36,364 nt of DNA from IMG/VR virus record IMGVR_UViG_2711768060_000011; one strand, 5' to 3'. Position numbers and translations under genes: made by a program. Under the pieces are notes generated by a model that was not told where the DNA came from, did no database searches, and saw nothing but the letters and a program-made list of their open reading frames with translations. This document shows positions 22,559 through 36,364 of this stretch, one piece after another. This DNA is from a virus (taxonomy: Duplodnaviria > Heunggongvirae > Uroviricota > Caudoviricetes). Positions within the stretch are counted from its first letter, which is position 1, and every line of letters starts with the position of its first letter.

Positions 22559-23311
22559 TTATCTTGTCACTCTCCTCAATTGTGTCTCAGCATATGCTTC
22601 TTCCTGCCAGCACTTTGTAACCAGTTTATCAATGACATCTGCATATCCTTTGTACCACTGATAATCCGTCAGGTCTGGTACCAGCTTCTGGACATGATGC
22701 CGCGCCAGTGTGGTTGGTAAACGGCTAAACCGGTTTCCATTGCAACGCCCACAAATCTTATAAACAGGCGTGCCATGAAGCCGGGTCCTTTTTTCATCCA
22801 GGACAATACCTTTACCCTTACACCCTCTGCACGCTGTGCTGACTTCTCCCTTACCATGACAATGCTGACATAGTTCCTTTACCCACTCTTCCTTGATAAC
22901 AGATTCCCCGCTTCTGGATTGTTTCACCACCTCGCGCAATACATTATGAAATCCAGTACCAGCACAATGCTCACAGCGAGCCTTACTTGCCGCAGACCTG
23001 GAATAATCAGCAAAGGCAAAATTCACAAGGTAAGGGATGATCTGTAACCGGATTTCTTCACTCAATTTGTTCAATGTCGGGTTATCCAGTGCCATCGCGT
23101 AATTGAGCAGACCTTCAATCGCAAACTGAGGATCCTGAACGCCAACTTTTGCCAGGAATAAGGTAAACCCAAGCGGTGCTTTCGACTGCACCATCCCCTG
23201 TGCAGCCATCACATCCGTAATCGTTAAACCACCTGAGCCTGTCGCCGGTGCGTCATCACTCAATTTTGGAGATTTTGGGGAGTAATATTTTGGTAAGGCT
23301 TCAAGGTTCAT
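22559..23311 (-). CDS. Q: late-gene antiterminator Q (lambda Q family)
   Basis: 250-aa ORF with YSPKSPKLSD...TDVMAAQGM N-terminus, ADYSRSAA...RCEHCAGTG and CGRCNG zinc motifs, and ...VTR C-terminus resembling lambda Q; followed by a terminator. Confidence 0.8.
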   Translation of the reverse strand: MNLEALPKYYSPKSPKLSDDAPATGSGGLTITDVMAAQGMVQSKAPLGFTLFLAKVGVQDPQFAIEGLLNYAMALDNPTLNKLSEEIRLQIIPYLVNFAFADYSRSAASKARCEHCAGTGFHNVLREVVKQSRSGESVIKEEWVKELCQHCHGKGEVSTACRGCKGKGIVLDEKRTRLHGTPVYKICGRCNGNRFSRLPTTLARHHVQKLVPDLTDYQWYKGYADVIDKLVTKCWQEEAYAETQLRRVTR

Positions 23312-23324
23312 GCTCGTTCTCCAC

Positions 23325-24320
23325 TTACGCCAGTACGCCTATTGCCAGCGCACGATCGATAAAACGAAATATCAGCTCCAACTGGGAGCCATACATCTCT
23401 TCAAATGCCACGGTATCCGCATGCAGCTCGTCGTGATGCTTTCTGCACAAAGGCAACACAAAGAGGTCATGCGCTTTTGTACCCATTCCCCCCTGACCGT
23501 GGCCTATCAGGTGGTGGGGATCATCAGCAAGCTTTCCACAACATGCACACGGCTGTGTCTTAACCCAGCGCGTGTACTTTTCATTAACCCAGCGGCGACG
23601 TTTTGGGCGTAACATAAAAGACTCCGGCGACTCCGGATCCACTTTCAGCGCCAGCACCTTTTTCGCTTTATCCTGGATAATGCTGGTGGCAGGAACCGAA
23701 GGCACAAGGTCACTTTCCCGGGTGACAGACGGCACAACAGGCTTCGGTAATCTCAGTGCCTTACGGGCTGCACTTTCCGGTAAGGCATCCGCCAGGTCAT
23801 TACGAATCAGCCACCAGCACAGTTCCGGCATTGTCACAACGTGACTATCATCAAAACCGAGATCCCGACGCACAACAGACAACACCCAACGGGCACAGTT
23901 ATCCGTTGCCATTGATTCCAGCCGTTCCGTGAACTGATCGCGCAGCTGGTTATCGCAGTGCCAGCAGAGACGGATTGCGCCCGGAGCGTGCCGCATTGTG
24001 GTCATGTTCTCGCTGTGCCAGTCGGAATGAGGCCACTGGCAGCCTTTTTCACGAAGTAACCAGCTTTCAAGACATTCCACCCCACCAGCACGACGGATCA
24101 CTGCCTCATTGCGGAACACGGCCCGAACGGCAGGATCATCCGCCAGCGGTTGTGATGCCGCGGGAACGGCACCACTGGCGAAAGATGAATAACGTTCCGG
24201 CTCAGGCTCCAGCAGGACACGCCCCTGCATAAACAGGGGCATCAGCTCTGAACCGGGCCTGAACAATACGATCCCCATACGCGGGGCAATTTCAGGGGTC
24301 AGTAGTGCTCTCACAGTCAC
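23325..24320 (-). CDS. DUF968-type protein with C-terminal HNH-like zinc motif
   Basis: 331-aa ORF; C-terminal CACCGK...HHLIGHGQGG...CRKHHDELH motif; position upstream of Q as in Qin/Rac-type prophages. Confidence 0.55.
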   Translation of the reverse strand: MTVRALLTPEIAPRMGIVLFRPGSELMPLFMQGRVLLEPEPERYSSFASGAVPAASQPLADDPAVRAVFRNEAVIRRAGGVECLESWLLREKGCQWPHSDWHSENMTTMRHAPGAIRLCWHCDNQLRDQFTERLESMATDNCARWVLSVVRRDLGFDDSHVVTMPELCWWLIRNDLADALPESAARKALRLPKPVVPSVTRESDLVPSVPATSIIQDKAKKVLALKVDPESPESFMLRPKRRRWVNEKYTRWVKTQPCACCGKLADDPHHLIGHGQGGMGTKAHDLFVLPLCRKHHDELHADTVAFEEMYGSQLELIFRFIDRALAIGVLA

Positions 24321-24321
24321 C

Positions 24322-25164
24322 TCAATGAACGGTATCGAGCAACTTTAACAGCTCGGGGAATCGGGATTCGAAGAAATGCGGCTGCGTCTCGCGCGGATTT
24401 GCGGGACTGGTGATGTTCTTGCCGAACATGCAGCCTTTCGCCGTCAGCGACCAGAATTTTTTGATGTTGTTAATCGCGGTACGGCTGTATCGTTCGCGTT
24501 GTTCAACGATCCCCAGCTTCACCATCTGGTGATATGCCTGATTAGCCGTCAGGCGGATACCATACTGTTTCAGCAGTGCACTCAGCGACAGCGTGGGGCG
24601 ACTTGAGCCATCAGGCGCGTCAGCAGGAGCATCAATGGCATAGCGCGGTGCCAGATTCGGTAAGCCAACAGCCTCCTGGAGTTTCTGACAGGCACCAAGC
24701 ACTGATGAGTTAGACAGGTTTAATTCCCGGCGCATAAAGTCCAGCAGGATCACACCAGCCTGCATCTTGTCAGCAGCCTGCCCAGATAATTTTTCCGGTG
24801 CGCTGGTTACCATATCGAAAGTACGGATCACCTTCAGATGGAATGACGAGCTGATCCACATTGCATAGGCATACACCAGTTCTTTGCAGACATACGTCCC
24901 CTGGTTATTTCCGCCATTAATGACGCTAACTGGTTGATTTTGTTCCATAGGCGGAATTCCACCCTCGGTGAAAAGTTGTTCAATCAATTCACAGGTTTGC
25001 TTATTGGAGAGCCAGTATTTCGGGCGGTTTTTTTGTTCTCCCCCGGCTGCCCTGTGCAGATCGTTCAGGCTGTAACGCCCATAAGCATCACGACGAACTT
25101 CAATACCATCAATGACCATCAGATTATTCATACTTCGTTTCTCCTCTTGATCAGGCGGCTGCAC
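24322..25164 (-). CDS. KilA-N domain protein
   Basis: 280-aa ORF; N-terminal ...IDGIEVRRDAYGRYSLNDLHRAAGGEQKNRPKYWL... resembles KilA-N/Bro-N domains. Confidence 0.55.
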   Translation of the reverse strand: MQPPDQEEKRSMNNLMVIDGIEVRRDAYGRYSLNDLHRAAGGEQKNRPKYWLSNKQTCELIEQLFTEGGIPPMEQNQPVSVINGGNNQGTYVCKELVYAYAMWISSSFHLKVIRTFDMVTSAPEKLSGQAADKMQAGVILLDFMRRELNLSNSSVLGACQKLQEAVGLPNLAPRYAIDAPADAPDGSSRPTLSLSALLKQYGIRLTANQAYHQMVKLGIVEQRERYSRTAINNIKKFWSLTAKGCMFGKNITSPANPRETQPHFFESRFPELLKLLDTVH

Positions 25165-25540
25165 CCGCCGTTTTCTCGTACTTACTGATAGTGATCTCGA
25201 CCTTCCCTTCCGGGATAACCGGTCCCCACTCCACCAGCATTCTTTTCACCTGACTGTCGTCTTCCCACACACCCGCGTGGGTCAGGGCGTCAAACAGCGC
25301 CTTGTTATAGTTGTCCAGATCGCGGATCCGGTTATCCGGAGGAAACAACACGATCTCCACTGAAGCAGGTGCCGACGTTGGTTTCGGAAGACGACGTAAC
25401 TGCTCAACTATTGCTGCGCACGCCGCGCTCTGGAATTTGCGCCCCGCCGCGCTTATCAGGCTTTTACCAGCAAACGCCCCTTTGTTAGGGTGTCGCCAGT
25501 ACGTATTCACGCTGGGCGGGAAAGGCAGGATCAGTTTCAT
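25151..25540 (-). CDS. rusA: Holliday junction resolvase RusA
   Basis: 129-aa ORF with PPSVNTYWRH and RDLDNYNKALFDALTHAGVWEDDSQV motifs characteristic of RusA. Confidence 0.85.
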   Translation of the reverse strand: MKLILPFPPSVNTYWRHPNKGAFAGKSLISAAGRKFQSAACAAIVEQLRRLPKPTSAPASVEIVLFPPDNRIRDLDNYNKALFDALTHAGVWEDDSQVKRMLVEWGPVIPEGKVEITISKYEKTAGAAA

Positions 25541-25863
25541 ACTTTCAGGCCTCTCTCATGTAACCAGTGGGTTGCACGCAGCCTGGCGTTTTCCTCACCG
25601 GCAAGCAGTGAGCGGATAATCCAGACAGCCTCGCTGTCGTCGTCCTTCACCGCGGTATGAAGCGTTATCCCCCGGGCCACGCCACGCTTTATCGTGATGA
25701 CGCCTTTTTTCTCCAGTGCGCGAAGATGCTCCACCGCTGCATTCACTGAACGGTATCCCAGCATGGTTGCCACCTCCTGATTGGTTGGCGGGAAGCCTCG
25801 TTCTTTCTGGTAAGAAATCAGCATATCCAGCACCTGCTGCTGGCATTGAGTTAATGTCGTCAT
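25537..25863 (-). CDS. LexA N-terminal DNA-binding-domain protein (no peptidase domain)
   Basis: 108-aa ORF MTTLTQCQQQVLDMLISYQKERGFPPTNQEVATMLGYRSVNAAVEHLRALEKKGVITIKRGVARGITL aligns along the LexA N-terminal winged helix (LTARQQEVFDLI...[46 protein letters not shown]). Confidence 0.7.
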   Translation of the reverse strand: MTTLTQCQQQVLDMLISYQKERGFPPTNQEVATMLGYRSVNAAVEHLRALEKKGVITIKRGVARGITLHTAVKDDDSEAVWIIRSLLAGEENARLRATHWLHERGLKV

Positions 25864-26513
25864 GCCACCATCTCCCTGACCAGTTTTTCCGCCTGCTGGC
25901 GAACCTGCGCCAGAAAGGCCTCACCACATGCCTCAAGTTCATCGCGCCCGATGTAGCTGATTGCCGGTCCCTTCCAGGTCTTGTCAAAAACAGCAATAGC
26001 ACCAGAGAAAAAAGCTCCTGTCGGTATCTGCTTCTCGTCTTTCGGGATAAACCAGACAGGCAGTTCAAAACCAATACGCCCGCGAATAAAAGCAATATGA
26101 TCTGCATCTTCCGGCCACCACACTTCGCTGGTGGCAGCTTTGATCAGGAAAACATAGCGCCCGCCCTTATCACGCATGGCACTGGCATGTTTCATGATGT
26201 AACGCATGCCGGTGATGTATTGCCCCTCATGCTGACTGGCGCGGCTGTATGGAGGATTACCAAAGGCAGCACCTTTAAGCTCCGCAAGGCGTTCTGACCA
26301 GTCATGCGCCAGCGCGTTGTCTTCCGCCGTGTAATACGCGGCACATTTGGCGTTATCACCGTCAGTGAACAGATCCAGAACAAACGGGCCAAACAGGGTG
26401 TTAATTCCCCAGAAAATGTTGTCCGGCGTGCGCCACTGATCACCCACTTCCTTCAGTTCATGGGCTGGTTTGTTCCGCAGTTCCACCAGCTCCTGGCAAT
26501 ATTTATTACTCAT
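25860..26513 (-). CDS. DNA N6-adenine methyltransferase (phage Dam-like orphan methylase)
   Basis: NPPY catalytic motif (AAFGNPPYSRA); start chosen at the ATG that overlaps the upstream TAA stop by 1 nt (TAATG); the ORF track extends 11 codons further. Confidence 0.75.
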   Translation of the reverse strand: MSNKYCQELVELRNKPAHELKEVGDQWRTPDNIFWGINTLFGPFVLDLFTDGDNAKCAAYYTAEDNALAHDWSERLAELKGAAFGNPPYSRASQHEGQYITGMRYIMKHASAMRDKGGRYVFLIKAATSEVWWPEDADHIAFIRGRIGFELPVWFIPKDEKQIPTGAFFSGAIAVFDKTWKGPAISYIGRDELEACGEAFLAQVRQQAEKLVREMVA

Positions 26514-27007
26514 TAAGCCCCCACGTAATTCCCTGACAGATACCACTCATCACCCGATACAGCGCGCTTGCTGCTTTTCCGTAAACACTGCTCACGACGC
26601 GCCAGAAAATTGTTTCGTTCTGGCTGGGAGTGGCTTTCACGGAATGCCGCCATCCACACCGTTGCAGCACGACGGTATAAGCCCCTGGACTCCAGTTCTT
26701 CCGCCTGGCGGGTCAGGCACAAAATCACCCGGGGATCGTTAGTGCCGACATAGAAATTGCGCACAGGTCTGGTTTCACGAACTGGTTGTGGTTCCGACTC
26801 CTGCGCTCTCTCAGTCAGGCGCGGGAAATGTCTGCGTGTATCTCCTTCACAACGGTGAGCCACACGCCCACTCTGACGTAACTTGCTTGCTGACTGCAGA
26901 ACGCGCTGCCGTGAGTAACCTGCAAAAGCATCCGCAATGTCTCCGGAAGTACACCCCGGATGGGCTTCAATGAATTTCTGAACATCATTCAAAAGACTCA
27001 TAATCAC
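26513..27007 (-). CDS. hypothetical protein coupled to the replication initiator (possibly PerC-like regulator)
   Basis: 164-aa ORF overlapping the O-like gene stop by 4 nt; contains ...AEELESRGLYRRAATVW...; family assignment uncertain. Confidence 0.35.
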   Translation of the reverse strand: MIMSLLNDVQKFIEAHPGCTSGDIADAFAGYSRQRVLQSASKLRQSGRVAHRCEGDTRRHFPRLTERAQESEPQPVRETRPVRNFYVGTNDPRVILCLTRQAEELESRGLYRRAATVWMAAFRESHSQPERNNFLARREQCLRKSSKRAVSGDEWYLSGNYVGA

Positions 27008-27945
27008 CCCCTGAATCCTGCTGGGATCTGGCTGTAGTCCACGTTGTCGTAACTGGCTTTGAAGTACGGGTCTTCGCGTTTTTCGGTGTACGTGCTGACG
27101 GACGGCGATAAGCGCAGGGAAAGCTCATCCCATTTTTCCCGCAGCTTCGACGGGCTGAGCACGTTACGGCACCAGAACGGATCGCGACTGACGCGGCTGT
27201 ACATCTCGCAGATTTGTTTATGAGTACGACCATCCTGCACACACATCAGGCGAATTTCGTTTGCCCAGGCTGTCCAGTTCGGTTCTTTGGGACGAACCAC
27301 CTCGCCGTCACATTCGGCGGCATGCTCGTACAGGGCGATGATTTTTTTCCAGAGCCACTGTGCGCAGGTCAAATCATCCTGCGTCCCCCACTGGCGCTTT
27401 TTAGGGCTGAATACAACCGCATCAGGATGGCGAGTTAAAAAATCCTGTTCATCCGTCTGCGTGTCCGGTTGCGAAGCGTCCGGACGAGAAGGTTTTTTAT
27501 CTGACGGATCATGTTTTGATTTTACTGACGGATCCCCGCCAGATTCTGACGGGTGAAAACCCGCTTTTTTGCCAGATTTCGACGCATCAAATTTTGACGG
27601 GTCAGATTTTGATGCGTCAGATTTTGACGGGTCAGAATCTGACAGTTGAGAAAATGCCGCTGCCTGAAGCTTCGCAACGTTAAGCTGATAAACATTCGAC
27701 GCATTGCGGTTACCCTGGCGACGCGCCTTACGCGTTAACCAGCCTTCTGCTTCCAGCCGTGCGATAGCCGTTCTGACGGTACTCATCCCCGCGCCAATCT
27801 GACGGGCAATGGTTTCAATTGATGGCCAGCACACACCTTCGTCATTACTGAAATCAGCCAGGCGGGCCATAATTGCCACGCTGGATAACTTCATGCCTGA
27901 TGCAGCGCAACCATCCCATACATAGCCGGTTAATTTAGTGCTCAT
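27004..27945 (-). CDS. replication initiation protein (O-like) with internal origin iterons
   Basis: 313-aa ORF; N-terminal HTH (...WPSIETIARQIGAGMSTVRTAIARLEAEGWL); central SK(S/F)D(A/P)SKSD peptide repeats encoded by 15-bp DNA iterons; first gene after the CII-like module. Confidence 0.7.
   Translation of the reverse strand: MSTKLTGYVWDGCAASGMKLSSVAIMARLADFSNDEGVCWPSIETIARQIGAGMSTVRTAIARLEAEGWLTRKARRQGNRNASNVYQLNVAKLQAAAFSQLSDSDPSKSDASKSDPSKFDASKSGKKAGFHPSESGGDPSVKSKHDPSDKKPSRPDASQPDTQTDEQDFLTRHPDAVVFSPKKRQWGTQDDLTCAQWLWKKIIALYEHAAECDGEVVRPKEPNWTAWANEIRLMCVQDGRTHKQICEMYSRVSRDPFWCRNVLSPSKLREKWDELSLRLSPSVSTYTEKREDPYFKASYDNVDYSQIPAGFRG
27498..27645. repeat. iteron array (candidate replication origin) inside the O-like gene
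   Basis: About eight imperfect direct repeats of a ~15-bp unit (consensus near TCAGATTTTGACGGG), four in perfect tandem register at 27589-27645. Confidence 0.6.
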
Positions 27946-27954
27946 GACCGACCT

Positions 27955-28293
27955 CTATTTCCCTGAATTTACGACGAAACTGTTCGAGCGGACTGAAGCA
28001 TTCATGCTCATAACCTTCGCGGAGGTAGATAACCCGTTGTGTTTCCGGCTCCCAACGAATGACTCTGACGAGCACTCCGTAGTGATCTTTGAACCAGCGG
28101 TTAACTTGTCGCAAAGGACTGTCTCCTTCTGCCGGTTGAAATCACCCACAGCCCACTCTGCAAAGCTGTGGGTTACAATTTCCCTGTCACCTGGTACATT
28201 CACTGCATAGCAATATTCCACCTTCGCTTTTCCACCCGGTACAGGAAGCGCAATCAGTTGCGAGCGACGGTAGTGTGTTGTTAAACTGTTCAT
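27955..28293 (-). CDS. hypothetical early protein
   Basis: 112-aa ORF between the CII/YdaT-like and O-like genes. Confidence 0.4.
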
Positions 28294-28880
28294 GCGTTAG
28301 TTTCTCCACAACCAGAAGCAATCGACGCCACGACGCCCGGAGCTGCACACTCGCGGGCGTCATTACTTTCTGAAATGCAAAAAATTTTGTAGACAAGTGC
28401 TGCATGCTCCTGCAGCTTCGAAATTGAGAGATACAGCTCGTCGTTAATTGCTGTCTTCTCATGCGGTTCCACTACGCCGTCTTCGATTGCTGAACGAATC
28501 TGTTTTGAATAACTGCCGATCTGTTCAATGACTTCCAGCAGACGCTGGTTAATATCGGCGTTGTCCACATCCTCGACGTCAGGAAGAGACACAAAGACGC
28601 CATTTGCAGACTGCGCCACAGCATCAGCAATGAAGTGAGTGCCACCAGCACGCTGTAAAACCATTGCCCATCCCAGCGGGAAAATCTGATCGCCATCTGC
28701 ACGAAGGCGGTTGAATAAAGCGTTCTCTGTTACATCCAGCCAGTCAGCGGCTTCAGCGTAACCCCCCGGCAACGCCGCGATAGTTTTTCTGACAGCTTTC
28801 ACGTACCACTCAGGCTGTTTTTCTATTTTCCAGTGATGCTTACCCACGGCTATCTCCTTAAAACTGTGGTTACTTTTCAT
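28290..28880 (-). CDS. CII/YdaT-like phage regulatory protein (putative)
   Basis: ORF 28290..28952; start placed at the internal Met (28880) to limit overlap with cro; immediately downstream of the cro-like gene. Confidence 0.45.
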
Positions 28881-29118
28881 CTGATGAATCTTTAATCTTT
28901 TGAAAAATATCTGGACGTAATTTTTCTTTTGATATGCCAGTGGTCTTTTCAATGAATATCGAGAGCTTTGCAGGGGGACGCTTTTCTCTGTTCAACCAGT
29001 TCCAGACATGTTGTTGCTTTACTAAATGACCGCTGCTGGCTGTGAGCTTCCGAGCCAATTCTGATTGACCACCAGCCAGAGCGATTGCCTCCGATAAGGC
29101 TAATTGCTCAGGTGTCAT
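28870..29118 (-). CDS. Cro/YdaS-like HTH regulator
   Basis: 82-aa ORF divergent from the cI-like repressor; HTH-like segment SELARKLTASSGHLVKQQHVWNWL. Confidence 0.7.
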   Translation of the reverse strand: MTPEQLALSEAIALAGGQSELARKLTASSGHLVKQQHVWNWLNREKRPPAKLSIFIEKTTGISKEKLRPDIFQKIKDSSDEK

Positions 29119-29138
29119 AGCTTTCTCCTTTTTTGGTA

Positions 29139-29230
29139 GTTAAGTTGTTACGAGCTGCAAGAATACAACATTAACAACTTTCACCACAACTTTTAGGTGT
29201 TGGAAAGCTAAAACATAAAGTTGTAACCTC
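29139..29230. promoter_or_regulatory. right operator/promoter region between the divergent cro-like and cI-like genes
   Basis: Three copies of AAGTTGT(T)A in both orientations (TAAGTTGTTA 29141-29150, TTAACAACTT 29171-29180, AAAGTTGTAACC 29217-29228) within the 135-bp divergent intergenic region. Confidence 0.6.
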
Positions 29231-29253
29231 ATCAAAAAAGAGAGGGATATGTT

Positions 29254-29940
29254 GTGAAAACACTGGCAGAACGATTAAAGATAGGTAGAGAGAAAGCTGG
29301 CATGAGCCAAGCTCAACTAGCTGAAAAAATTGGACTTTCACAACAATCTGTAGCCAAAATAGAGAATGGCGAAACTCTACAACCGCGCAAAATTAAAGAA
29401 ATTGCAAAAGTTTTAGGTGTATCACAAAAGTGGTTACAACTTGGTATTGAAGACAACGCATCCATACCTGATCTTGTTGTAAAAGAAGCAGAAAGCACCG
29501 CATTAGACCCCGATATTTTCGTAAACATTCCTGTTTTAGATGTCGAGTTATCGGCAGGTAACGGATGTCTGGCTGAAATAGTTGAATCAGCTATTGACTG
29601 GTTTCCGTTAAGAAGAGCAGATTTGAGAAAATCTGGCGTATGTGCATCTAATGCCAAGATCGTACAAATATGGGGGAACAGTTTATTACCGGTTCTCAAT
29701 AATGGAGATCTTGTTGCCGTTGATATTTCTCAAACCGTTCCTATTCGTGATGGCGATCTTTATGCCGTACGAGATGGTGTATTGCTAAGGGTTAAAATAC
29801 TTATCAACTTACCTGACGGTGGCTTGATTCTTAGAAGCTTCAACAAAGATGAGTACCCAGATGAAATACTCACCTTTGAAGATAGACGAGCCAGAATTCA
29901 TGTTATAGGTAGGGTATTCTGGTCATCGCGAACTTGGTAA
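29254..29940 (+). CDS. cI-like prophage repressor (HTH_XRE plus S24 LexA-type autopeptidase); GTG start
   Basis: N-terminal HTH (MSQAQLAEKIGLSQQSVAKIENGE), Ala-Gly cleavage site (LSAGNG), C-terminal S24-like Ser (GNSLLP) and Lys (LLRVKIL); AGAGGG Shine-Dalgarno before GTG at 29254. Confidence 0.9.
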   Translation: MKTLAERLKIGREKAGMSQAQLAEKIGLSQQSVAKIENGETLQPRKIKEIAKVLGVSQKWLQLGIEDNASIPDLVVKEAESTALDPDIFVNIPVLDVELSAGNGCLAEIVESAIDWFPLRRADLRKSGVCASNAKIVQIWGNSLLPVLNNGDLVAVDISQTVPIRDGDLYAVRDGVLLRVKILINLPDGGLILRSFNKDEYPDEILTFEDRRARIHVIGRVFWSSRTW

Positions 29941-30942
29941 TGCATCGAAAAGCATTTCTTCAGAAATAATTTTAAGTTTTGCACCATTATCATCCCTATA
30001 AGATATAGCCTTTTCGATCTTCCTTCCGTGACTAGAGAATTTCCAATCACGGGAGGAAAGCGTCCCAATTACTAAAAAATCCAACTTTTGAGTAATTCCA
30101 CTACTGATGTTCCCACCAGCATTTTTAATCAAATTTTCAACTACGGCTCTCTTTCCTGCAACAAAAGTGCCTGTAAGACAATAGGTTTTACCCTCTAACT
30201 CTATCGAAGCCCCTACATCAATAGGCAGCCTGGTCGCCAAACCATCCACCACCCCACTTTCCAAGTCACATCCTGTGAAGTCTACTAATGCCTTATGTAG
30301 AGTTAAACTCTCATCTTCAGTAATAACACCATCTTTAAGAATTTCCTTTACAAGTGCATAAAGTTTTTTTCCTGGGTAGTTGTTCTTCAAAGCTCCATTT
30401 TGCTCAAGCCACCAATTAAGATATCTTATTTCTTCTTGAGTTAAGTTCCGATCAGCAATTAATCCTTTACATAGTCCATTAAGTAAATGGACATCTACAT
30501 CCTTGGAGTAAAAATCAATTTCAGGGATATCAAGAATTTCCCTCTGTATTTGGAGAAGGCTATTTTTAAGGTCATCACGTTCTTCTGATGTGATTATTCC
30601 ATCCGCAAGAATATCCGACACCCGAGCAGATAGACTTTTTATAACTCCATTATTGATAATCTGCTTTGCTTCAAGTAACCATGTATCTAAGTAAAGAACC
30701 TCCTCTTCACGGACAACTCCATCTGCAATGATTCCATCAATGATGCTAATCAAGTTAGCAAATAACTTGTCCCGGTTTCGTGTAATTAAAAGCGTAAAGC
30801 GCGTCTTCCATACAACCTCCTTTTTTTGATAATCCTTGCGCTCCTTGGCTACTCGTTCAAACCACATAAAGTTGTTGGCAACATTCAAAACCACAACTAA
30901 ATTACAACTTAAAGGTGTTAAGACAACGAACAGGCAGGACAC
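29923..30942 (-). CDS. repeat-containing protein with C-terminal BRCT domain; likely true start at ATG 30867
   Basis: C-terminal ~90 aa (KTYCLTGTFVAGKRAVVENLIKNAGGNISSGITQKLDFLVIGT...) resembles the LigA-type BRCT domain; four ~45-aa repeats sharing ...L.DG.IT.EE...L...L; the first codon at 30942 is GTG and the N-terminal extension overlaps operator-like motifs. Confidence 0.6.
   Translation of the reverse strand: MSCLFVVLTPLSCNLVVVLNVANNFMWFERVAKERKDYQKKEVVWKTRFTLLITRNRDKLFANLISIIDGIIADGVVREEEVLYLDTWLLEAKQIINNGVIKSLSARVSDILADGIITSEERDDLKNSLLQIQREILDIPEIDFYSKDVDVHLLNGLCKGLIADRNLTQEEIRYLNWWLEQNGALKNNYPGKKLYALVKEILKDGVITEDESLTLHKALVDFTGCDLESGVVDGLATRLPIDVGASIELEGKTYCLTGTFVAGKRAVVENLIKNAGGNISSGITQKLDFLVIGTLSSRDWKFSSHGRKIEKAISYRDDNGAKLKIISEEMLFDALPSSR
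30866..30930. promoter_or_regulatory. OL-like operator cluster upstream of the plus-strand early operon
   Basis: Same motif as the right operator region: AAAGTTGTTGG (30868-30878), CCACAACTAA and ATTACAACTT (30891-30910). Confidence 0.5.
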
Positions 30943-31016
30943 CCACGAAGTAGCCCGCCCGGTACGTACGAAGACCGGGATGATTCGTTAGCGGATGATT
31001 TCAGTGGAGAGAATAG

Positions 31017-31325
31017 ATGAATGAGCAGGATTTGAAGCATGTGATCGCATTGTTGCTGGAAGACGCTAAACGTTTGCAGCAGATAGAGCCAAATGCAGGC
31101 ACTGAGGCCCGTATTTTGTTAGCAAAACAGGCATTAAAGACTTGCGGGGCGCAAGATCCTGATCGAACCAAGTTCATGAATTTCATGGCTAACACGATCA
31201 CCCCCCTGCCATGCAATGGAGAGAGGGTGAGCCGTGTTTATCACGACACAATGGTTAAGGCATTAAGAATCGAGCTTGATGGGCTTAGGCGTAAGATCGT
31301 GATGAACAAAATCGTTGCCAACTAA
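31017..31325 (+). CDS. hypothetical early protein (first gene of the plus-strand early operon)
   Basis: 102-aa ORF with GGAGAG Shine-Dalgarno, starting ~90 bp after the OL-like operator cluster. Confidence 0.4.
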   Translation: MNEQDLKHVIALLLEDAKRLQQIEPNAGTEARILLAKQALKTCGAQDPDRTKFMNFMANTITPLPCNGERVSRVYHDTMVKALRIELDGLRRKIVMNKIVAN

Positions 31326-31604
31326 GGAAGCAGACGGAAGTAAGCATGCGCTTTGTTCAAATTTGCAGACAAATATATTTGCGTCAACACCAGCACTGTT
31401 AGCAATGGAAAAAGTTTGATCAAGGATTTGTTGGCAGTTCATTGTGCTTTTGAGGATATATCCCTCTGGAATCAGTCTGCAGCAGCTATCGTCAGACTCT
31501 TTGATTGTTTTCTGGTACAGAAAGTTAAGCATTAATTCTTCAAATTTTTTGGTCTGTTCGGCTGTTGCTTCAAACAGACGAACGTGAACATAAAACTGGT
31601 TCAT
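31263..31604 (-). CDS. hypothetical protein (antisense to the early operon; coding status uncertain)
   Basis: ORF 31263..31640 with internal ATG at 31604 preceded by AGGAA; AT-rich; 3' end overlaps the plus-strand 102-aa ORF by 63 nt. Confidence 0.25.
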   Translation of the reverse strand: MNQFYVHVRLFEATAEQTKKFEELMLNFLYQKTIKESDDSCCRLIPEGYILKSTMNCQQILDQTFSIANSAGVDANIFVCKFEQSACLLPSASLVGNDFVHHDLTPKPIKLDS

Positions 31605-31883
31605 TAGGTTTCCTTGCTGGCTGTGTGAGAACTCCAGCATACCACCGAGCCTGAAGTGGTGAAAAGACAGGCAATAGTTTCATTGCTGTGTGTAGTCTTG
31701 GCGGTACCAGCTTGTACCCTTGCTTCCGGCTGGTACCGTCCTTTTTACAAAACAGAGAAGAGCATCACCGGACGACGGGCTCATAACCCAATCCATCCGG
31801 GCGGCGGCCACCACAGGTGTTCTTCTCTGTTTTGTGGAGAAACTAATAGGCCTTGCAGGGTCGATATGATGAGGAGCAGCAAA

Positions 31884-32246
31884 ATGGCTAGCGAACGCAG
31901 TACTGATGTACAGGCATTTATCGGGGAGCTGGACGGCGGCGTATTTGAAACCAAAATCGGCGCAGTTCTCAGTGAAGTCGCTTCCGGTGTGATGAACACG
32001 AAAACCAAAGGTAAGGTCTCGCTCAACCTGGAAATTGAACCATTTGATGAGAACCGTGTGAAAATCAAACACAAACTCTCATATGTTCGCCCAACTAACC
32101 GCGGGAAAATTTCCGAAGAAGACACTACCGAAACGCCGATGTATGTCAATCGCGGTGGTCGCCTGACTATTCTGCAGGAAGACCAGGGACAATTACTGAC
32201 TCTTGCCGGTGAACCTGACGGAAAACTCCGCGCAGCAGGTCGTTAA
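31884..32246 (+). CDS. YfdP-like early protein
   Basis: 120-aa product from ATG 31884 with GAGGAG Shine-Dalgarno (ORF track starts earlier at a poorer start); size and neighbourhood match CPS-53 yfdP-yfdQ-yfdR as recalled. Confidence 0.55.
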   Translation: MASERSTDVQAFIGELDGGVFETKIGAVLSEVASGVMNTKTKGKVSLNLEIEPFDENRVKIKHKLSYVRPTNRGKISEEDTTETPMYVNRGGRLTILQEDQGQLLTLAGEPDGKLRAAGR

Positions 32247-32311
32247 TATCGTTCTTAATAAACTGATTATTTATCTCATCACTGAATATCTTTGTATAGT
32301 GAGGACTTATT

Positions 32312-33136
32312 ATGTCTCAGAACTTAGACGCAACCGCAATTAATCAAATCCATGCCCTTATTTCTGCTCAGGGTGTTAATGAAATTATCAGTAAGATTGG
32401 TGCCGACGCAGTGGCATTACCTGAAAATTTCCGCATTCATGATCTGGAAAAATTTAATTTAAATCGCTTCCGTTTCCGTGGTGCGCTTTCCACTGCCAGC
32501 ATCGATGACTTTACCCGTTATTCTAAAGATCTTGCAGATGAAGGCACCCGCTGCTTTATCGATGCTGATAATATGCGTGCCGTCAGTGTGCTTAACCTGG
32601 GTACTATTGATGAACCAGGTCACGCAGATAACACCGCCACTCTCAAACTGAAAAAGGCAGCGCCGTTCTCTGCTCTGTTGTCTGTTAATGGCGAGCGTAA
32701 CTCCCAGAAGTCACTGGCAGAATGGATTGAAGACTGGGCCGACTACCTTGTGGGCTTTGATGCTAATGGTGACGCTATTCAGGCAACAAAAGCGGCTGCG
32801 GCTGTCCGTAAAATCACGATTGAAGCAAACCAGACCGCTGATTTTGAAGATAATGACTTCAGCGGCAAACGCTCCCTGATGGAGTCTGTCGAAGCGAAGA
32901 CCAAAGATATTATGCCAGTGGCATTTGAATTTAAATGCGTTCCGTTTGAAGGTCTGAAAGAACGTCCGTTTAAATTACGCCTCAGCATTATCACTGGCGA
33001 TCGTCCTGTACTGGTTCTGCGCATTATTCAGCTGGAAGCAGTGCAGGAAGAAATGGCTAACGAATTTCGTGATCTGCTTGTTGAGAAATTCAAAGACAGC
33101 AAAGTAGAAACCTTTATTGGTACTTTCACCGCCTGA
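32312..33136 (+). CDS. YfdQ-like protein (DUF2303 type)
   Basis: 274-aa ORF with Shine-Dalgarno, between the YfdP-like and HD-domain genes. Confidence 0.6.
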
Positions 33137-33148
33137 TTTCATTACTGC

Positions 33149-33170
33149 AAATGCCCCTGCGGGGGCATTT
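33149..33170 (+). terminator. hairpin between the YfdQ-like and HD-domain genes (possible attenuator)
   Basis: 9-bp perfect stem AAATGCCCC/GGGGCATTT with TGCG loop, 13 nt after the YfdQ-like stop; weak T-tract. Confidence 0.35.
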
Positions 33171-33263
33171 ATGGAAACGTAATTAACTCAATAATCGCCG
33201 GATGGTGAGGGCTTCCTTTTACCAGAATTCAGCGCGGTGCAGTGCATATACGTGGAGAACAAA

Positions 33264-33800
33264 ATGTCATTTATTAAAACTTTTTCCGGGAAGCATTTTT
33301 ATTATGGCAGGATAAATAAAGACGACATCGATATTAACGATATCGCGGTTTCCCTTTCAAATATCTGTCGCTTTGCCGGTCATCTTTCGCACTTCTACAG
33401 CGTCGCCCAACATGCGGTTCTTTGCAGCCAGCTGGTGCCGCAGGAATTTGCTTTTGAAGCGTTAATGCATGATGCAACAGAAGCGTATTGCCAGGACATT
33501 CCCGCACCACTGAAACGCCTTCTTCCTGACTATAAACGGATGGAAGAAAAAATAGACGCCGTAATCCGTGAGAAATACGGGTTACCTCAGGCTATGAGCA
33601 CGCCCGTGAAATATGCCGATCTCATCATGCTGGCAACCGAACGCCGCGATCTCGGGCTTGATGATGGCTCTTTCTGGCCAGTATTGGAAGGTATCCCAGC
33701 AACAGAGATGTTCGAAATTATTCCTCTGGCTCCTGGCCATGCCTACGAGATATTTATGGAACGTTTTAAAGAGCTGCATAAGATACATAAGCAATCCTGA
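33264..33800 (+). CDS. HD-domain phosphohydrolase (YfdR-like)
   Basis: 178-aa product from ATG 33264 (GGAGA Shine-Dalgarno); HD motif (EALMHDATEAY) plus upstream His residues (AGHLSHFYSVAQHAV). Confidence 0.7.
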   Translation: MSFIKTFSGKHFYYGRINKDDIDINDIAVSLSNICRFAGHLSHFYSVAQHAVLCSQLVPQEFAFEALMHDATEAYCQDIPAPLKRLLPDYKRMEEKIDAVIREKYGLPQAMSTPVKYADLIMLATERRDLGLDDGSFWPVLEGIPATEMFEIIPLAPGHAYEIFMERFKELHKIHKQS

Positions 33801-33840
33801 CAGCGAAATTAACTAGTGAAATAGTTTTGTAGCAAAAGAA

Positions 33841-34101
33841 ATGAGGTTATCAAAAATGCTTCAAATGCTGACACTTGAGGAATGGGCTGCGGAAAAATTT
33901 AGGAGTAATCCTCCAAGTGTGTCCACATTGCGTCGTTATGCTAAGCAGAATTTATTTTGTCCACCGGCAATGAAACAAGGTCGACTATGGCGAGTACGTG
34001 AGGACGCAGAGTTAGTTGGGGAATTAGTTACTCCTGTCATCAAGAAAAGTGATTCTATTATTCTACAAAGGATTTTAAGTAATGGCAGCCAGACCACGTA
34101 A
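33841..34101 (+). CDS. excisionase (Xis-like DNA-binding protein)
   Basis: 86-aa ORF immediately upstream of and overlapping the integrase start by 20 nt. Confidence 0.5.
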   Translation: MRLSKMLQMLTLEEWAAEKFRSNPPSVSTLRRYAKQNLFCPPAMKQGRLWRVREDAELVGELVTPVIKKSDSIILQRILSNGSQTT

Positions 34102-35212
34102 AAATAATGTTTCAGTCCCGAACTTGTATCCACTTTATAGTAGAAAAGTAAATAAAGTCTATTGGCGATATAAACATCCAGTGACCGGGAAGTTTCATTC
34201 TTTAGGCACAAACGAAGCTGAAGCCATTGCTATTGCCACTGAGGCAAATTCACGCCTGGCTGAGCAAAGAACCCGGCAGATTCTGGCTATCAGTGACAGG
34301 ATCGCAACCAGCAAAGGAAAAGCAATCACAACGTCAACCTGGTTAGATCGCTATCAAGCAATCCAGGATGACAGACTGGAAAGTGGCGATATAAAGCTCA
34401 ACACCTATAAACAGAAAGCCAAACCAGTATCCTTGCTCAGGGAACGAGCAGGAATGAAATTAATTTCATCAGTTGATGTAAGGGATATAGCGCAATTGCT
34501 TGACGAGTATATCACTGCCGGGCAACCGAGGATGGCGCAAGTAGTCCGCTCCGTTCTAATTGATGTATTCAAGGAGGCACAACACTATGGGGAAGTCCCT
34601 CCGGGCTATAATCCAGCACAGGCAACCAAACAACCCAGAAGAAAAATTACCCGACAACGGTTAAGTCTTGAAGAATGGCAAAAAATCTTTGATATCGCAG
34701 ATGCCAGTCATCGTTATATGGGGAATGCCATGCTGTTAGCACTGGTTACCGGCCAGAGGTTAGGTGATATCTCGCGTATGAAATTTAGCGATATTTGGGA
34801 TGATCATCTCCATGTCATCCAGGAAAAAACCGGGAGCAAAATCGCCATCCCGCTTTCTCTTCGTCTCAACGCGATTAACTGGAGTTTACGCGATGTAGTC
34901 GCCCGCTGCCGTGACTATGCAGTCAGCCCATACCTTGTGCATTTTTTTCGTACCACTTCACAGGCTGAACGTGGCGCGCAGGTTAAATCCAATACATTGA
35001 CGACGAATTTTAGTAGAGCGAGAGATTTGGCAGAAATTGACTGGGGTAATGGCTCACCAGCAACATTCCATGAACAAAGGTCTTTATCTGAACGTCTGTA
35101 CAAAGAACAGGGGGTAGACACACAAAAACTACTTGGCCATAAAACGCAACAACAAACCGATCGTTATCATGATGATCGGGGAAAAGATTGGATGTATATC
35201 CACCAGTTTTAA
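34082..35212 (+). CDS. int: site-specific tyrosine integrase (lambda Int family)
   Basis: 376-aa ORF; C-terminal LLGHKTQQQTDRYHDDRGKDW resembles the lambda Int C-terminus (GHKSDTMASQYRDDRG) with the catalytic Tyr. Confidence 0.9.
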   Translation: MAARPRKNNVSVPNLYPLYSRKVNKVYWRYKHPVTGKFHSLGTNEAEAIAIATEANSRLAEQRTRQILAISDRIATSKGKAITTSTWLDRYQAIQDDRLESGDIKLNTYKQKAKPVSLLRERAGMKLISSVDVRDIAQLLDEYITAGQPRMAQVVRSVLIDVFKEAQHYGEVPPGYNPAQATKQPRRKITRQRLSLEEWQKIFDIADASHRYMGNAMLLALVTGQRLGDISRMKFSDIWDDHLHVIQEKTGSKIAIPLSLRLNAINWSLRDVVARCRDYAVSPYLVHFFRTTSQAERGAQVKSNTLTTNFSRARDLAEIDWGNGSPATFHEQRSLSERLYKEQGVDTQKLLGHKTQQQTDRYHDDRGKDWMYIHQF

Positions 35213-35250
35213 CTATGAACCTCTTCAAAAGACTCCCTATAAACTATGAA
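35211..35250 (+). repeat. direct 9-bp repeat AACTATGAA (two copies) immediately downstream of int
   Basis: Copies at 35211-35219 and 35242-35250 in the AT-rich int/DUF262 intergenic region. Confidence 0.25.
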
Positions 35251-35311
35251 TATTGAACAATTTTATTATTGATGTAAAATAACCCTCCTTTTCATAGTCA
35301 GGAGAATAGTC

Positions 35312-36364
35312 ATGAATACAAATGTAGGGCAGATCACATTAATTGATCTAATTTCAATGCTTGAGAGAAAAGAACTAATAATTAACAAGGATTATCAGCG
35401 CGGAAATGGAATATGGCCACCATTTGCAAAGAGTTATTTCATAGACACTATTCTAGAAAATTATCCTTTCCCCAAAATATATTTATATCAAGCATTTGAC
35501 AGGACAAACGAAAGGCCAATTAAAGAAATTGTTGATGGCCAGCAACGAGTAACAACTCTCGTTGATTTTTATAAAAACAAATTTGCACTTACTTCGGCAT
35601 CGAAGAAGTATTCTGGCATGTATTTTAATGATTTGCCCGATGATGCAAAAAGATGTTTTATTAGTTATCAAGTTGAAACATCCACAGTTTATTCAGCAAG
35701 CAGGGCTGAATTACTCGAAATGTTTAGACGAATGAATGCTTATACATCTCCACTAACATCAGCAGAAAAACGGCATGCTACTTTTCAAGGTGCATTTAAG
35801 TGGTATATCGTTGAAAAAGCAGATACCCACGCTGAGCTTTTAGAGATTTATAATATATTGTCACCCAAAATATTAGCCAGAATGGGTGATGCAGAATTTA
35901 TCTCAGATATGGCAATACTCATTGATAGAGGGCTTTGTTCAAAGTCGGCACCTGCAACCGAAGCTATTTATAAAAAATACGATGATGATTTTCCTTTAGA
36001 GAATATCTATAACGAGAGAATTGATTATTTCTTCAATTTATTGGCGGAAGATTTTTCCGAATTACGTAATTCATTTATGATGAAATCGTATGTTGTTCAC
36101 TCATTATTTTGTGCTATTACCGCATTAAAATTTGGTTTCCCCGGAAGTGATGAACTTGAAAATGAACTCGGTTTCACGGCTAACCCAAACTTTGATGTAA
36201 ATCCTTCCCGTGTAATTCCGATTCTCTTAGAGATGGCTGATGCCCATGAAATTCAGGACGAAGATGGCCCTTATGCAGCCTATGTAACAAGTTGTTTATC
36301 ATCAACAACCAAGCTACCACAACGAACCACGCGCACAAAAGAACTGATTAAAGCATTCTTATGA
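35312..36364 (+). CDS. DUF262 (GmrSD N-terminal / ParB-like) domain protein, stand-alone
   Basis: 350-aa AT-rich ORF with AGGAGA Shine-Dalgarno; N-terminal DYQRGNGIW and DGQQR motifs diagnostic of DUF262; no HNH/DUF1524 motif seen in the C-terminal half; stop is the last codon of the window. Confidence 0.75.
   Translation: MNTNVGQITLIDLISMLERKELIINKDYQRGNGIWPPFAKSYFIDTILENYPFPKIYLYQAFDRTNERPIKEIVDGQQRVTTLVDFYKNKFALTSASKKYSGMYFNDLPDDAKRCFISYQVETSTVYSASRAELLEMFRRMNAYTSPLTSAEKRHATFQGAFKWYIVEKADTHAELLEIYNILSPKILARMGDAEFISDMAILIDRGLCSKSAPATEAIYKKYDDDFPLENIYNERIDYFFNLLAEDFSELRNSFMMKSYVVHSLFCAITALKFGFPGSDELENELGFTANPNFDVNPSRVIPILLEMADAHEIQDEDGPYAAYVTSCLSSTTKLPQRTTRTKELIKAFL

Follow-up and report, generated by a model that had tools for sequence, protein, structure and literature searches.

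The window, the whole 36,364-nt stretch of viral DNA that was analysed, carries on its minus strand (27004-27945) an open reading frame for a 313-aa replication initiator of the SfII/SfIV/CPS-53 type. The gene follows cro and cII in the early rightward operon, and the genes next to it encode PerC-like, Dam, LexA-like and RusA proteins. It displays 98.6-99.2% nucleotide identity to the replication gene of the Shigella phages SfII and SfIV and of several Escherichia phages, and the product matches the HTH_36 profile (E = 4.2e-11) and PHROG 391, 'replication initiation O-like' (4e-135). The N-terminal winged-helix domain (aa 1-97; 27655-27945, minus strand), identified by HTH_36 and in an AlphaFold model, is the presumed iteron binder; it is modelled with helices at residues 43-50 and 54-66 and wing strands at 70-73 and 85-88 (pLDDT 72-89). 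Foldseek searches with this domain retrieved MarR-type winged-helix folds, the best at E = 4e-3 and none at E ≤1e-3, and comparison of the initiator with solved structures and NCBIfam gave generic winged-helix matches only. Pfam likewise returned HTH_36 and generic winged-helix families and not the N-domain of the lambda O family, and a DnaD_N match was below threshold (E = 0.0016).

The C-terminal helical domain (aa ~166-280; 27106-27450, minus strand) is a homologue of the C-domain of lambda O, as recognised by tblastn, BLASTP and AlphaFold. Identity to lambda-type O proteins is 39% over aa 166-277 in tblastn, and BLASTP aligns aa 174-277 with residues 177-270 of lambda O (6e-26), with little similarity outside the C-terminal domain; the domain is modelled with pLDDT of about 86-93. 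The linker encoded by the repeats described below is predicted to be disordered (aa 103-164, pLDDT below 50). A C-terminal tail, EDPYFKASYDNVDYSQIPAGFRG (27007-27075, minus strand), is common to initiators with otherwise different C-domains, and the DNA at 27004-27079 is 96-97% identical in phages with otherwise different replication genes. The HTH_36, PHROG 391 and lambda O matches agree with the original prediction, made from the sequence, that the repeats lie in the middle of an O-like initiator and link an N-terminal HTH domain to a C-terminal domain. A scan of early-region ORFs for helicase, loader (P-like or DnaC-like) and primase domains found none.

Positions 27498-27645 hold six 15-bp units read on the coding (minus) strand, five of them head to tail and the sixth after a 33-bp step. 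The tandem part (27571-27645) consists of U1, CTGTCAGATTCTGAC (27631-27645), U2, CCGTCAAAATCTGAC (27616-27630), U3, GCATCAAAATCTGAC (27601-27615), U4, CCGTCAAAATTTGAT (27586-27600), and U5, GCGTCGAAATCTGGC (27571-27585), each with a conserved core TCA(A/G)AATCTGA(C) and a variable 3-nt spacer. An 18-bp spacer, AAAAAAGCGGGTTTTCAC (27553-27570), the 3' part of which (GTTTTsAC) is conserved, makes the 33-bp step to U6, CCGTCAGAATCTGGC (27538-27552), which is the best conserved site. Beyond U6 there are two copies of a half-unit, GATCCGTCAG (27525-27534 and 27501-27510), within a conserved AT-richer block. Units and half-units together span nt 301-445 of the gene, and the array proper nt 301-408. 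The 'about eight' imperfect direct repeats of ~15 bp that had been predicted are accordingly six units plus two half-units; the predicted tandem arrangement is present, with five units head to tail in place of four, and is perfect in its spacing only. The encoded peptide, LSDSD-PSKSD-ASKSD-PSKFD-ASKSG...PSESG, is the SK(S/F)D(A/P)SKSD repeat as originally described.

The period was upheld by Tandem Repeats Finder, which reported 27573-27636 with a period of 15, 4.3 copies, 81% matches and a score of 86, and no other array in the 36-kb window above a score of 39. The program reported the array again with a period of 30 (88% matches, score 100), and a gapless repeat finder gave copy spacings of 48, 15, 15 and 15, with 30-nt repeat copies spanning tandem units being 73-87% identical. 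A 30-bp super-period was rejected as a feature of the family, because it reflects an alternation of CCG and GCA spacers that is local to this gene and not conserved in relatives. With ≤2 mismatches allowed, the core TCARAATCTGAC has 16 matches in the window, 12 of them inside 27538-27643; 100 shuffles averaged 5.6 matches and never exceeded 11, placing the array above chance. Relatives carry about 1-13 units, the step before the last unit is 33 bp in 30 cases and 48 bp in 42 cases across the family, and the length of the linker varies in 5-aa steps among close relatives.

Each unit has internal dyad symmetry, the conserved 12-nt core being an imperfect palindrome, TCAGA-A-TCTGA; inverted-repeat pairs were found in the array and the motif scores on both strands. 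A position matrix built from 429 units in 76 genes showed that nt 1-3 of the unit vary while the other 12 are held. U6 sits in a longer near-palindrome, CCGyCAGAATCTGGsGG, and in a distant subfamily, of which L084 is the representative, the palindrome becomes perfect over 17 bp, CCTCCAGAATCTGGAGG. This extended palindrome favours a pairing of half-sites as TCAGA-A-TCTGA over the alternative TCTGAC-NN-GTCAGA, as far as can be read from the sequences. A role of the region as RNA, for instance as a folded part of the early mRNA, was considered since a 161-nt transcript folds at -53.2 kcal/mol (z = -6.1 versus shuffles), yet such pairing is a consequence of the alternation of palindromic half-sites. 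Covariation among 22 relatives was 0.051 versus a shuffled mean of 0.054, with 365 of 500 shuffles doing at least as well, and variable positions mostly break pairs. Pairing partners cannot be fixed when copy number ranges so widely, and the region has no match in Rfam; we regard an RNA function as hardly credible.

Constraint on the array was seen at synonymous sites. Across 76 non-identical relatives, comprising genes from many Enterobacterales, synonymous change is 0.08-0.15 at codons 101-150 versus 0.53-0.73 at codons 11-100, and the valley covers exactly 27496-27645, coinciding with the coordinates originally given for the repeats (27498-27645). In comparisons with relatives from Klebsiella, Citrobacter, Yersinia and phiP27 the synonymous fraction, which is 0.51-0.63 over the N-domain, drops to 0.07-0.23 over the repeats (Fisher p = 2e-7 to 3e-4), while amino-acid changes show no fall there and are as frequent as in the flanks or more so. 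Codon choice was analysed in 148 units defined by peptide only (xS[KE]SD). The first serine is encoded by TCA in 145 units (background 16%), the second by TCT in 127 (background 9%), and the lysine or glutamate codon ends in A in every one of the 148 (background 59%). The first codon of each unit varies freely (P, A, T, L or G), which argues against simple homogenisation of whole units, and phiP27 and a Citrobacter prophage (locus L077) preserve a unit that is read in another frame. Judged by these substitution patterns, selection acts on the DNA of the array and not on the peptide.

The repeats could in principle be a by-product of slippage that lengthens and shortens a repetitive, flexible peptide linker, SK[S/F]D[A/P], the DNA having no role. 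The in-frame period, the 5-aa length steps and the low complexity and predicted disorder of the peptide are what such a process would leave. However, conservation at synonymous positions is much stronger than in the flanks, while amino acids in the array change at an equal or higher rate; the choice of codons hardly varies, and one unit is conserved in another frame. Moreover, a sister module has a 23-bp period that is unable to encode a peptide repeat, and a host protein is reported to footprint the array DNA sequence-specifically (PMC9181523). This explanation is strongly disfavoured and we consider it very improbable.

The sister module illustrates how the repeats are distributed among phages. 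phiNP shares with the present gene only 27467-27944, that is the N-domain plus the array, and mEp460_4F5 shares only 27004-27503, the C-domain. mEp460_4F5 has the same operon position, C-domain and tail, and SfV (orf39) the same operon position and C-terminal tail; in both, repeats occupy the corresponding part of the gene, but the N-terminal domains and the repeats themselves are different. In mEp460_4F5 there are five 23-bp repeats at the equivalent place, the period not being a multiple of three, and in SfV a third repeat type is found, with three copies of a longer repeat spaced 24 and 42 bp. Diverged subfamilies of the N-domain carry diverged units. From these alignments, the repeats travel with the N-domain in mosaic exchange, and a different N-domain is accompanied by unrelated repeats. 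The N-domain presumably binds the repeats.

Beside the array lies a block of about 45 bp (27493-27537, minus strand) that is roughly 70% A+T, contains the two half-units and two GATC sites, and is conserved as DNA across genera. The least stable 40-mer in the gene body (27487-27526, GC 0.30) ranks in the 94th percentile for the window; it borders the array at its promoter-distal end, an arrangement shared with lambda. The GATC sites at 27531-27534 and 27507-27510 are present in 76 and 68 of the 76 relatives, respectively, with a spacing of 24 bp in 74. The block is a candidate unwinding region, although a modest one that is weaker than a classical unwinding element. There is no DnaA box near the array; the closest site with one mismatch is 650 bp off, and counts are at chance level. 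Three terminator-like hairpins are found on the antisense strand. A promoter or terminator role was rejected, given the antisense orientation of the hairpins and the lack of a promoter-like site on either strand in 27300-28000.

Iteron arrays have control functions in plasmids, and the initiator might bind the array for autoregulation or copy control, through titration or handcuffing, with unwinding and initiation taking place elsewhere in the prophage. The modest AT-rich block and the lack of a DnaA box would fit such a function. We nevertheless find it quite unlikely, since no second motif cluster exists in the 36-kb window, where the four matches outside the array (2 mismatches each) are at chance level, and since the array matches ori-lambda in position and adjoins a block conserved as DNA across genera.

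One of the closest known systems is ori-lambda, inside gene O of lambda and its relatives 434, 21 and 933W. In both cases the repeats lie mid-gene between a DNA-binding N-domain and a homologous C-domain, and the four lambda iterons at O nt 349-435, just upstream of the C-domain, are at a place equivalent to that of the array, as the original comparison with lambda had implied. The repeats of both have internal dyad symmetry, the AT-richer block is promoter-distal in both, and both genes follow cro and cII. There are also clear differences. The N-domain is of the HTH_36 type and has no match to the lambda O N-domain family. The unit of 15 bp at exact 15-bp spacing is, as predicted, shorter than that of lambda, which is about 19 bp at 20-24 bp spacing; being in frame, the 15-bp unit gives rise to a repeated peptide. 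Copy number varies in the present family and is fixed at four in lambda; there is no P gene or other loader; the AT-rich block is weaker and the GATC pair is conserved.

We estimate a probability of roughly 0.7 that the array is a lambda-style iteron replication origin of an SfII/SfIV/CPS-53 (KplE1)-type lambdoid prophage, situated inside the gene of its own initiator. This reading is based on the DNA-level selection, the N-domain-specific repeats and the lambda iterons at the equivalent position in O. The interpretation as an iteron origin given in the original prediction is thus supported by sequence data, from which we infer origin firing and initiator binding. In the proposed mechanism, dimers of the N-terminal winged-helix domain would bind the cores and form a multi-protein complex like the lambda 'O-some', and stress induced by the complex would open the adjoining AT-richer block. 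The lambda-O-like C-domain, tethered by the disordered linker that the array encodes, would then bring in the replicative helicase. With neither a P-like nor a DnaC-like gene in the prophage, the helicase would have to be derived from the host DnaB/DnaC system or arrive via an unrecognised partner. Slippage by one unit, which is exactly five codons, would alter both the number of sites and the length of the linker with the frame intact, explaining the wide natural range of copy number. The family would represent a natural case of a lambda-O-like initiator without a dedicated helicase loader, and the coupled change of site number and linker length, like the absence of the loader, offers a handle for studies of host-helicase recruitment.

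Some observations speak against an origin, among them the modest AT-rich block, the lack of a DnaA box and the binding of a host regulator, SrsR, to these units. The 15-bp spacing corresponds to about 1.4 helical turns and places neighbouring sites on different faces of the helix, whereas about two turns separate classical iterons. In lambda this C-domain binds P, yet the prophage lacks a loader gene. Variants with one or two units only also exist (P0016, P0035 with 128 contigs, and P0068); either a small number of sites is enough or such prophages have lost the ability to replicate. The searched literature yielded no replication or initiator-binding experiment for this initiator family, and nothing in it on SfII, SfIV, SfV, phiP27, Rac oriJ or yfdO describes the array as an origin. 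The array as an origin seems not yet described for this phage group, while the kind of origin is itself ordinary. The SfIV record, when examined, has no origin feature at the array, and the E. coli K-12 record has a partial gene only.

Initiators acting on repeats are known from several systems. In iteron plasmids (F RepE, R6K pi, pPS10 RepA and RK2 TrfA) a winged-helix initiator acts on direct repeats beside a melting region, and Bacillus phage SPP1 has origin sites for G38P inside the initiator gene 38. Plasmid iterons are usually 17-22 bp long, about two turns apart and located outside the rep gene, with DnaA boxes. A plasmid-type (Rep_3-like) iteron origin was rejected for the present array, because the initiator has no Pfam match to Rep_3, the spacing is 15 bp, the sites are inside the gene and no DnaA box is nearby. 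Parallels exist among lambdoid phages, whose origin-binding proteins, even when only remotely related, have specific repeats within the very gene that encodes them and bind these (PMC8022706). The gene 18 iterons of P22 and phage L, which in phage L are six imprecise 11-bp repeats forming a predicted, not demonstrated, origin, similarly are initiator-specific and within the initiator coding region (PMC8022706). The protein families and repeat sequences are different, and P22 and L encode their own helicase (gene 12), unlike the present prophage.

A host protein has been reported to bind a copy of the array. The array of the K-12 cryptic prophage CPS-53 (KplE1) has 2 differences in 273 nt from the present one, and the initiator copy there is truncated, having lost codons 1-78 and hence the DNA-binding domain. 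The strongest SrsR genomic SELEX peak in E. coli K-12, with an intensity of 1206, is in the 'yfdO/yfdP spacer', other loci being at 158-288 among the values seen in Table 1 (PMC9181523). The same source reports a 66-bp DNase I footprint with the boxes TCAaATTTTGa, TCAGATTTTGa, TCAGATTTTGa and TCAGAgTcTGa, several complexes in gel shifts on this site, and yfdO and yfdK mRNA levels that are down in an srsR mutant and up on overexpression. PMC9181523 frames the site as a promoter-proximal activator site of a host LysR regulator and mentions neither iterons nor an origin. Alignment identified the four K-12 boxes, in the order of the paper, as U4, U3, U2 and U1, and the 11-bp SrsR box is the conserved core (unit positions 4-14).

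Published in vitro binding to exactly these units (PMC9181523) raises the question whether the repeats are SrsR (YgfI) boxes that control transcription of downstream prophage genes, and not replication. We consider this unlikely. Intact phages have the array 300 nt into a coding sequence and not in a promoter, the K-12 'spacer' existing because the initiator gene lost its first 78 codons, and 27300-28000 contains no promoter-like site. It would also leave unexplained that, within one host species, initiators that differ in their N-domain differ in the repeats at this place as well. Relatives of SrsR form 56 clusters, named from Escherichia, Citrobacter, Kosakonia, Yersinia, Hafnia and Sodalis-like hosts. 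No cluster is named from, or large enough for, Salmonella or Klebsiella pneumoniae, where initiator and array are abundant (P0020, 867 members; P0053, 1615 members), an observation that is suggestive only. SrsR binding is real, but it is probably a secondary or adventitious property and less likely the function that is conserved.

A tentative possibility, to which we attach limited probability, is a dual use of the array, with origin iterons, in a prophage family among the commonest of E. coli, whose core is also recognised by host SrsR, and an initiator whose lambda-O-type C-domain works without a P-like loader; the K-12 site would then be a fossil origin turned into an activator of yfdONMLK. 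If so, SrsR could compete or cooperate with the initiator in intact prophages, and prophage replication would be tied to stationary-phase or oxidative-stress physiology. The top SrsR site of K-12 reads as a remnant of a phage origin in a truncated initiator gene and not as an ordinary intergenic promoter region, which bears on the 'SrsR box' consensus, as it is dominated by these four repeats.

About 70 prophages share the architecture, their hosts ranging from Escherichia to Providencia, Rahnella and Rosenbergiella, and it is also kept in Salmonella. Members of the family include the Shigella serotype-converting phages SfII and SfIV as well as CPS-53, and the array or its prophage family occurs in 38% of complete E. 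coli genomes (2058 of 5426), for which the array provides a concrete candidate origin. As evidence for autonomous replication, matches in a plasmid collection were uninformative, since they proved to be chromosomes filed in error or phage-like DNA that had been circularised and had no replicon type.

Span 27498-27645, put forward in the original prediction as an iteron-type origin within an O-like gene, lies inside the minus-strand ORF 27004-27945, whose product is the 313-aa initiator. Tandem Repeats Finder recovered the periodicity (27573-27636, period 15 bp, 4.3 copies, 81% matches, score 86) together with a second period of 30 bp over the array (88%, score 100), and every other array in the whole 36-kb window scores 39 or less. 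On the coding (minus) strand, five head-to-tail units (U1-U5) run from 27645 down to 27571. Next come an 18-bp spacer, one further unit (U6, 27552-27538) and a pair of GATCCGTCAG half-units at 27534-27525 and 27510-27501. Four units in perfect tandem had been reported; the tandem arrangement held, but the units number five and, while regularly spaced, are not identical. The unit consensus CCGTCAAAATCTGAC translates to Pro-Ser-Lys-Ser-Asp, and the peptide repeat claimed earlier is therefore real. Each unit is internally symmetric (TCAGA-A-TCTGA). Allowing up to 2 mismatches, the core TCARAATCTGAC has 16 matches in the window, 12 of them in 27538-27643, compared to a mean of 5.6 and a maximum of 11 under 100 shuffles.

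The initiator gene was compared with those of four phages sharing the same N-domain (Klebsiella phage 1 LV-2017, Citrobacter phage phiNP, Yersinia phage YeP3, and phage phiP27), and with an added sample of 80 prophage loci, one genome per species, across Enterobacterales. Among codons for identical amino acids, the synonymous difference from the four phages was 0.51-0.63 in the N-domain and 0.07-0.23 in the repeat region (Fisher p 2e-7 to 3e-4), and amino-acid replacements were no rarer in the repeat region than in the N-domain. Across 76 non-identical genes, a synonymous valley covers codons 101-150 (0.08-0.15, compared to 0.53-0.73 for N-domain codons 11-100), within which the 10-codon bin holding the spacer (121-130) stands at 0.34; in window coordinates the valley spans 27496-27645, nearly coinciding with the predicted span. 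Units selected by their peptide only (xS[KE]SD, n=148) use TCA for the first Ser in 145 cases (background 16%), TCT for the second in 127 (background 9%), and a Lys or Glu codon ending in A in all 148 (background 59%); these counts are phylogenetically non-independent, though the effect is very large. Unit positions 1-3 vary freely, encoding P, A, T, L or G, and the remaining twelve are conserved, a pattern not expected if gene conversion homogenised entire units. In phiP27 and L077, a Citrobacter prophage, one unit is retained in another frame, TTGACCCTTCAGAATCTGGA being translated there as V-L-T-L-Q-N-L-D. The synonymous valley, the fixed codon choice and the out-of-frame unit contradict a purely peptide-level repeat, and together they identify DNA as the object under selection. 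We found no support for the array acting as an RNA element: its transcript has a strong fold (z = -6.1), but that is a consequence of the alternating half-sites, covariation among 22 relatives is nil (0.051, compared to 0.054 when shuffled), and Rfam gave no match.

The initiator aligns end to end with PHROG 391 'replication initiation O-like' (4e-135), and at 98.6-99.2% identity its gene matches the one for replication in several Escherichia phages and in Shigella phages SfII and SfIV. The early operon has a lambdoid order (cI, cro, cII-like, DUF4222 gene, initiator, PerC-like, Dam, LexA-like, RusA, KilA-N, DUF968, Q). An HTH_36 domain is found at aa 23-70 (E 4.2e-11), aa 166-277 share 39% identity with the C-terminal region of lambda-type O proteins, and a direct BLASTP comparison with one lambda O protein gave 6e-26. 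The AlphaFold model, for which 35 homologues were used, contains a winged helix (aa 1-98, pLDDT 72-89), a segment with pLDDT <50 (aa 103-164) and a helical domain (aa 185-280, pLDDT ~90); Foldseek with the N-domain returned nothing but MarR-type winged-helix folds. The repeats do link the N-terminal HTH to the C-terminal domain, as predicted, and this layout, with its low-pLDDT middle, indicates that they encode what is modelled as a flexible tether joining the DNA-binding domain to the lambda-O-like domain.

Comparisons of lambda, 434, phi80 and P22 gave the classical logic of an initiator matched to its own sites. The phiNP gene has only 27467-27944 in common with the window gene, i.e. the N-domain, the array and the adjoining block, and its C-domain differs. 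The part in common with mEp460_4F5 is only the C-domain (27004-27503); its N-domain differs, and at the equivalent gene position it carries five 23-bp repeats, a period incompatible with a peptide repeat. A third kind of repeat occupies that position in SfV, whose N-domain is of a third type. N-domain subfamilies that diverged have diverged units: the unit is GACCCGTCAAATATT in a Rac-like E. coli prophage, and CCAGAA(T/A)CTG(G/A)A in a second E. coli prophage and one from Klebsiella. In a distant group the units are 27 bp long and flanked on both sides by a perfect palindrome, CCTCCAGAATCTGGAGG. These groups also differ in their predicted recognition helix (STVRTAIA, STVKSAIA, STVIGLIN, STVYGALA). 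As judged from sequence comparison, this co-variation of N-domain and repeats is the pattern expected of an initiator and its own sites, which the phage L genome paper gives as the rule (PMC8022706).

The predicted lambda-like arrangement is borne out by position, the array occupying nt 301-408 of the initiator gene and the four iterons of lambda O nt 349-435, directly upstream of the domain homologous to the initiator C-domain. Likeness to lambda extends to internally symmetric units and to an AT-richer block on the promoter-distal side, here weaker than a classical unwinding element. The least stable 40-mer inside the initiator gene body is 27487-27526 (GC 0.30), and the adjoining block (27493-27537), GGGGATCCGTCAGTAAA(A/T)TCAAAACANGATCC(A/G)TCAG, shows almost no base changes between Escherichia and genera as far as Providencia and Rosenbergiella, and is also conserved in a Salmonella prophage. 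Of its two GATC sites (27507-27510, 27531-27534), one occurs in 76/76 relatives and the other in 68/76, and they are 24 bp apart in 74/76. The phage has its own Dam methylase gene (25860-26546) two genes downstream of the initiator, and 33 of 78 related loci have a Dam-like gene at most ~850 bp downstream; that the GATC pair and Dam point to an origin controlled by methylation or SeqA is speculation. The array would work like ori-lambda and has most of its structural features. It differs from lambda in that the N-domain is outside the lambda O family and a loader gene is absent from the early/immunity ORFs scanned. We consider it best filed as a putative iteron origin inside a lambdoid initiator gene, a textbook kind of element, of which the in-frame 15-bp unit, variable copy number, conserved GATC pair and absence of a loader are variant features. 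No open-access paper or record annotation was found that names the array as an origin.

Comparative evidence on site layout, DNA-level conservation, N-domain linkage and lambda-equivalent position supports the proposed iteron origin, and we put the probability that this is an initiator-binding origin array at roughly 70%. Dimers of the winged-helix domain would occupy the six cores, with neighbouring units at 15 bp lying ~150 degrees apart around the helix; the initiator complex would strain and then open the adjoining block, and the C-domain on its disordered tether would recruit the helicase. No helicase, helicase-loader or primase domains were detected in the early/immunity-region ORFs scanned (22559-36364), which would leave the host DnaB/DnaC system or an unrecognised partner to supply the helicase, the least supported step. 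A loader domain is lacking even though lambda O binds P through the domain to which the initiator C-domain is homologous; the gene in the lambda P position (26513-27007) encodes a 164-aa protein with a PerC-like C-terminus and is missing from some relatives. Array slippage would be tolerated because the unit is five codons long, and unit number in relatives ranges, in 5-aa steps, from one or two (P0016, P0035, P0068) to ten or more (P0047, L065). The three variants at the low end have suffered near-complete array loss through in-frame deletions between repeats, and one Salmonella variant with the array nearly lost is present on 128 contigs. Array-poor variants may belong to replication-dead prophages, or one or two sites may suffice. 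Less probably, the array would serve control only, with the true origin elsewhere, but a second motif cluster is absent from the window.

The 261 bp around the array were found in 2058 of 5426 complete E. coli genomes, including K-12, where the copy sits in the cryptic prophage CPS-53 (KplE1). This locus (in XL1-Blue, NZ_CP132550.1 2469959-2470666, corresponding to locus L093:2065-2772) is a 5'-truncated initiator pseudogene that has lost codons 1-78, most of the DNA-binding domain, and its remainder abuts yfdP; the array itself survives intact (2 differences over 273 nt). Kobayashi et al. 2022 studied SrsR (YgfI), a host LysR-type regulator, whose strongest genomic SELEX peak was the 'yfdO/yfdP spacer' (intensity 1206, compared to 158-288 for other loci among those of Table 1) and which raised yfdO and yfdK mRNA (PMC9181523). 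Its 66-bp DNase I footprint contains the boxes TCAaATTTTGa, TCAGATTTTGa, TCAGATTTTGa and TCAGAgTcTGa (PMC9181523), which in order are U4, U3, U2 and U1, the 11-bp box being the conserved unit core. Sequence-specific protein binding to the array DNA is therefore experimentally established, for a host protein (PMC9181523). That paper mentions neither iterons nor an origin. With the SELEX peak at the array and the footprint over U1-U4, SrsR binding could be taken as the function of the array. We regard it as secondary rather than the conserved function, because the K-12 'spacer' is an artefact of gene truncation, intact phages have no promoter-like site at the array, and other repeat types with other N-domains in the same host are left unexplained. 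It is also suggestive that none of 56 clusters of SrsR relatives was attributable to Salmonella or Klebsiella pneumoniae, in both of which the array is abundant and conserved. With the origin reading preferred, the K-12 SrsR site can be re-read as a fossil origin, and this re-reading, the abundance of the family and the question of helicase loading make the array of greater interest.

The initiator C-terminal tail (EDPYFKASYDNVDYSQIPAGFRG; DNA 27004-27079) recurs on initiators with three unrelated C-domains. At the DNA level the tail is 96-97% identical in Stx2c phages, cdtI, SfV and mEp460, despite replication genes that are otherwise different; it may represent a mosaic joint or a short docking motif, or serve as both. 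Next to the cI repressor gene, a minus-strand ORF (29923-30942, 339 aa) with a C-terminal BRCT domain matches the candidate defence family PDC-S48 weakly (2.5e-7) and is possibly a defence or accessory gene carried by the prophage. Past the integrase (34082-35212), a plus-strand ORF running to the window end (35312-36364) has a GmrSD_N domain and a PADLOC NsnA match (8.5e-32), and looks like a DNA-modification-dependent nuclease adjoining the prophage end. Among the related loci, a 16-kb circular E. coli 'plasmid' record (L089, NZ_CP148542.1) carries a lambdoid early-region gene set comprising cI-like and cro-like genes, an initiator 52% identical to that of the window, a DnaC-like ATPase, RusA and an antiterminator, and may represent either a natural lambda-dv-like replicon or an artefact of assembly.
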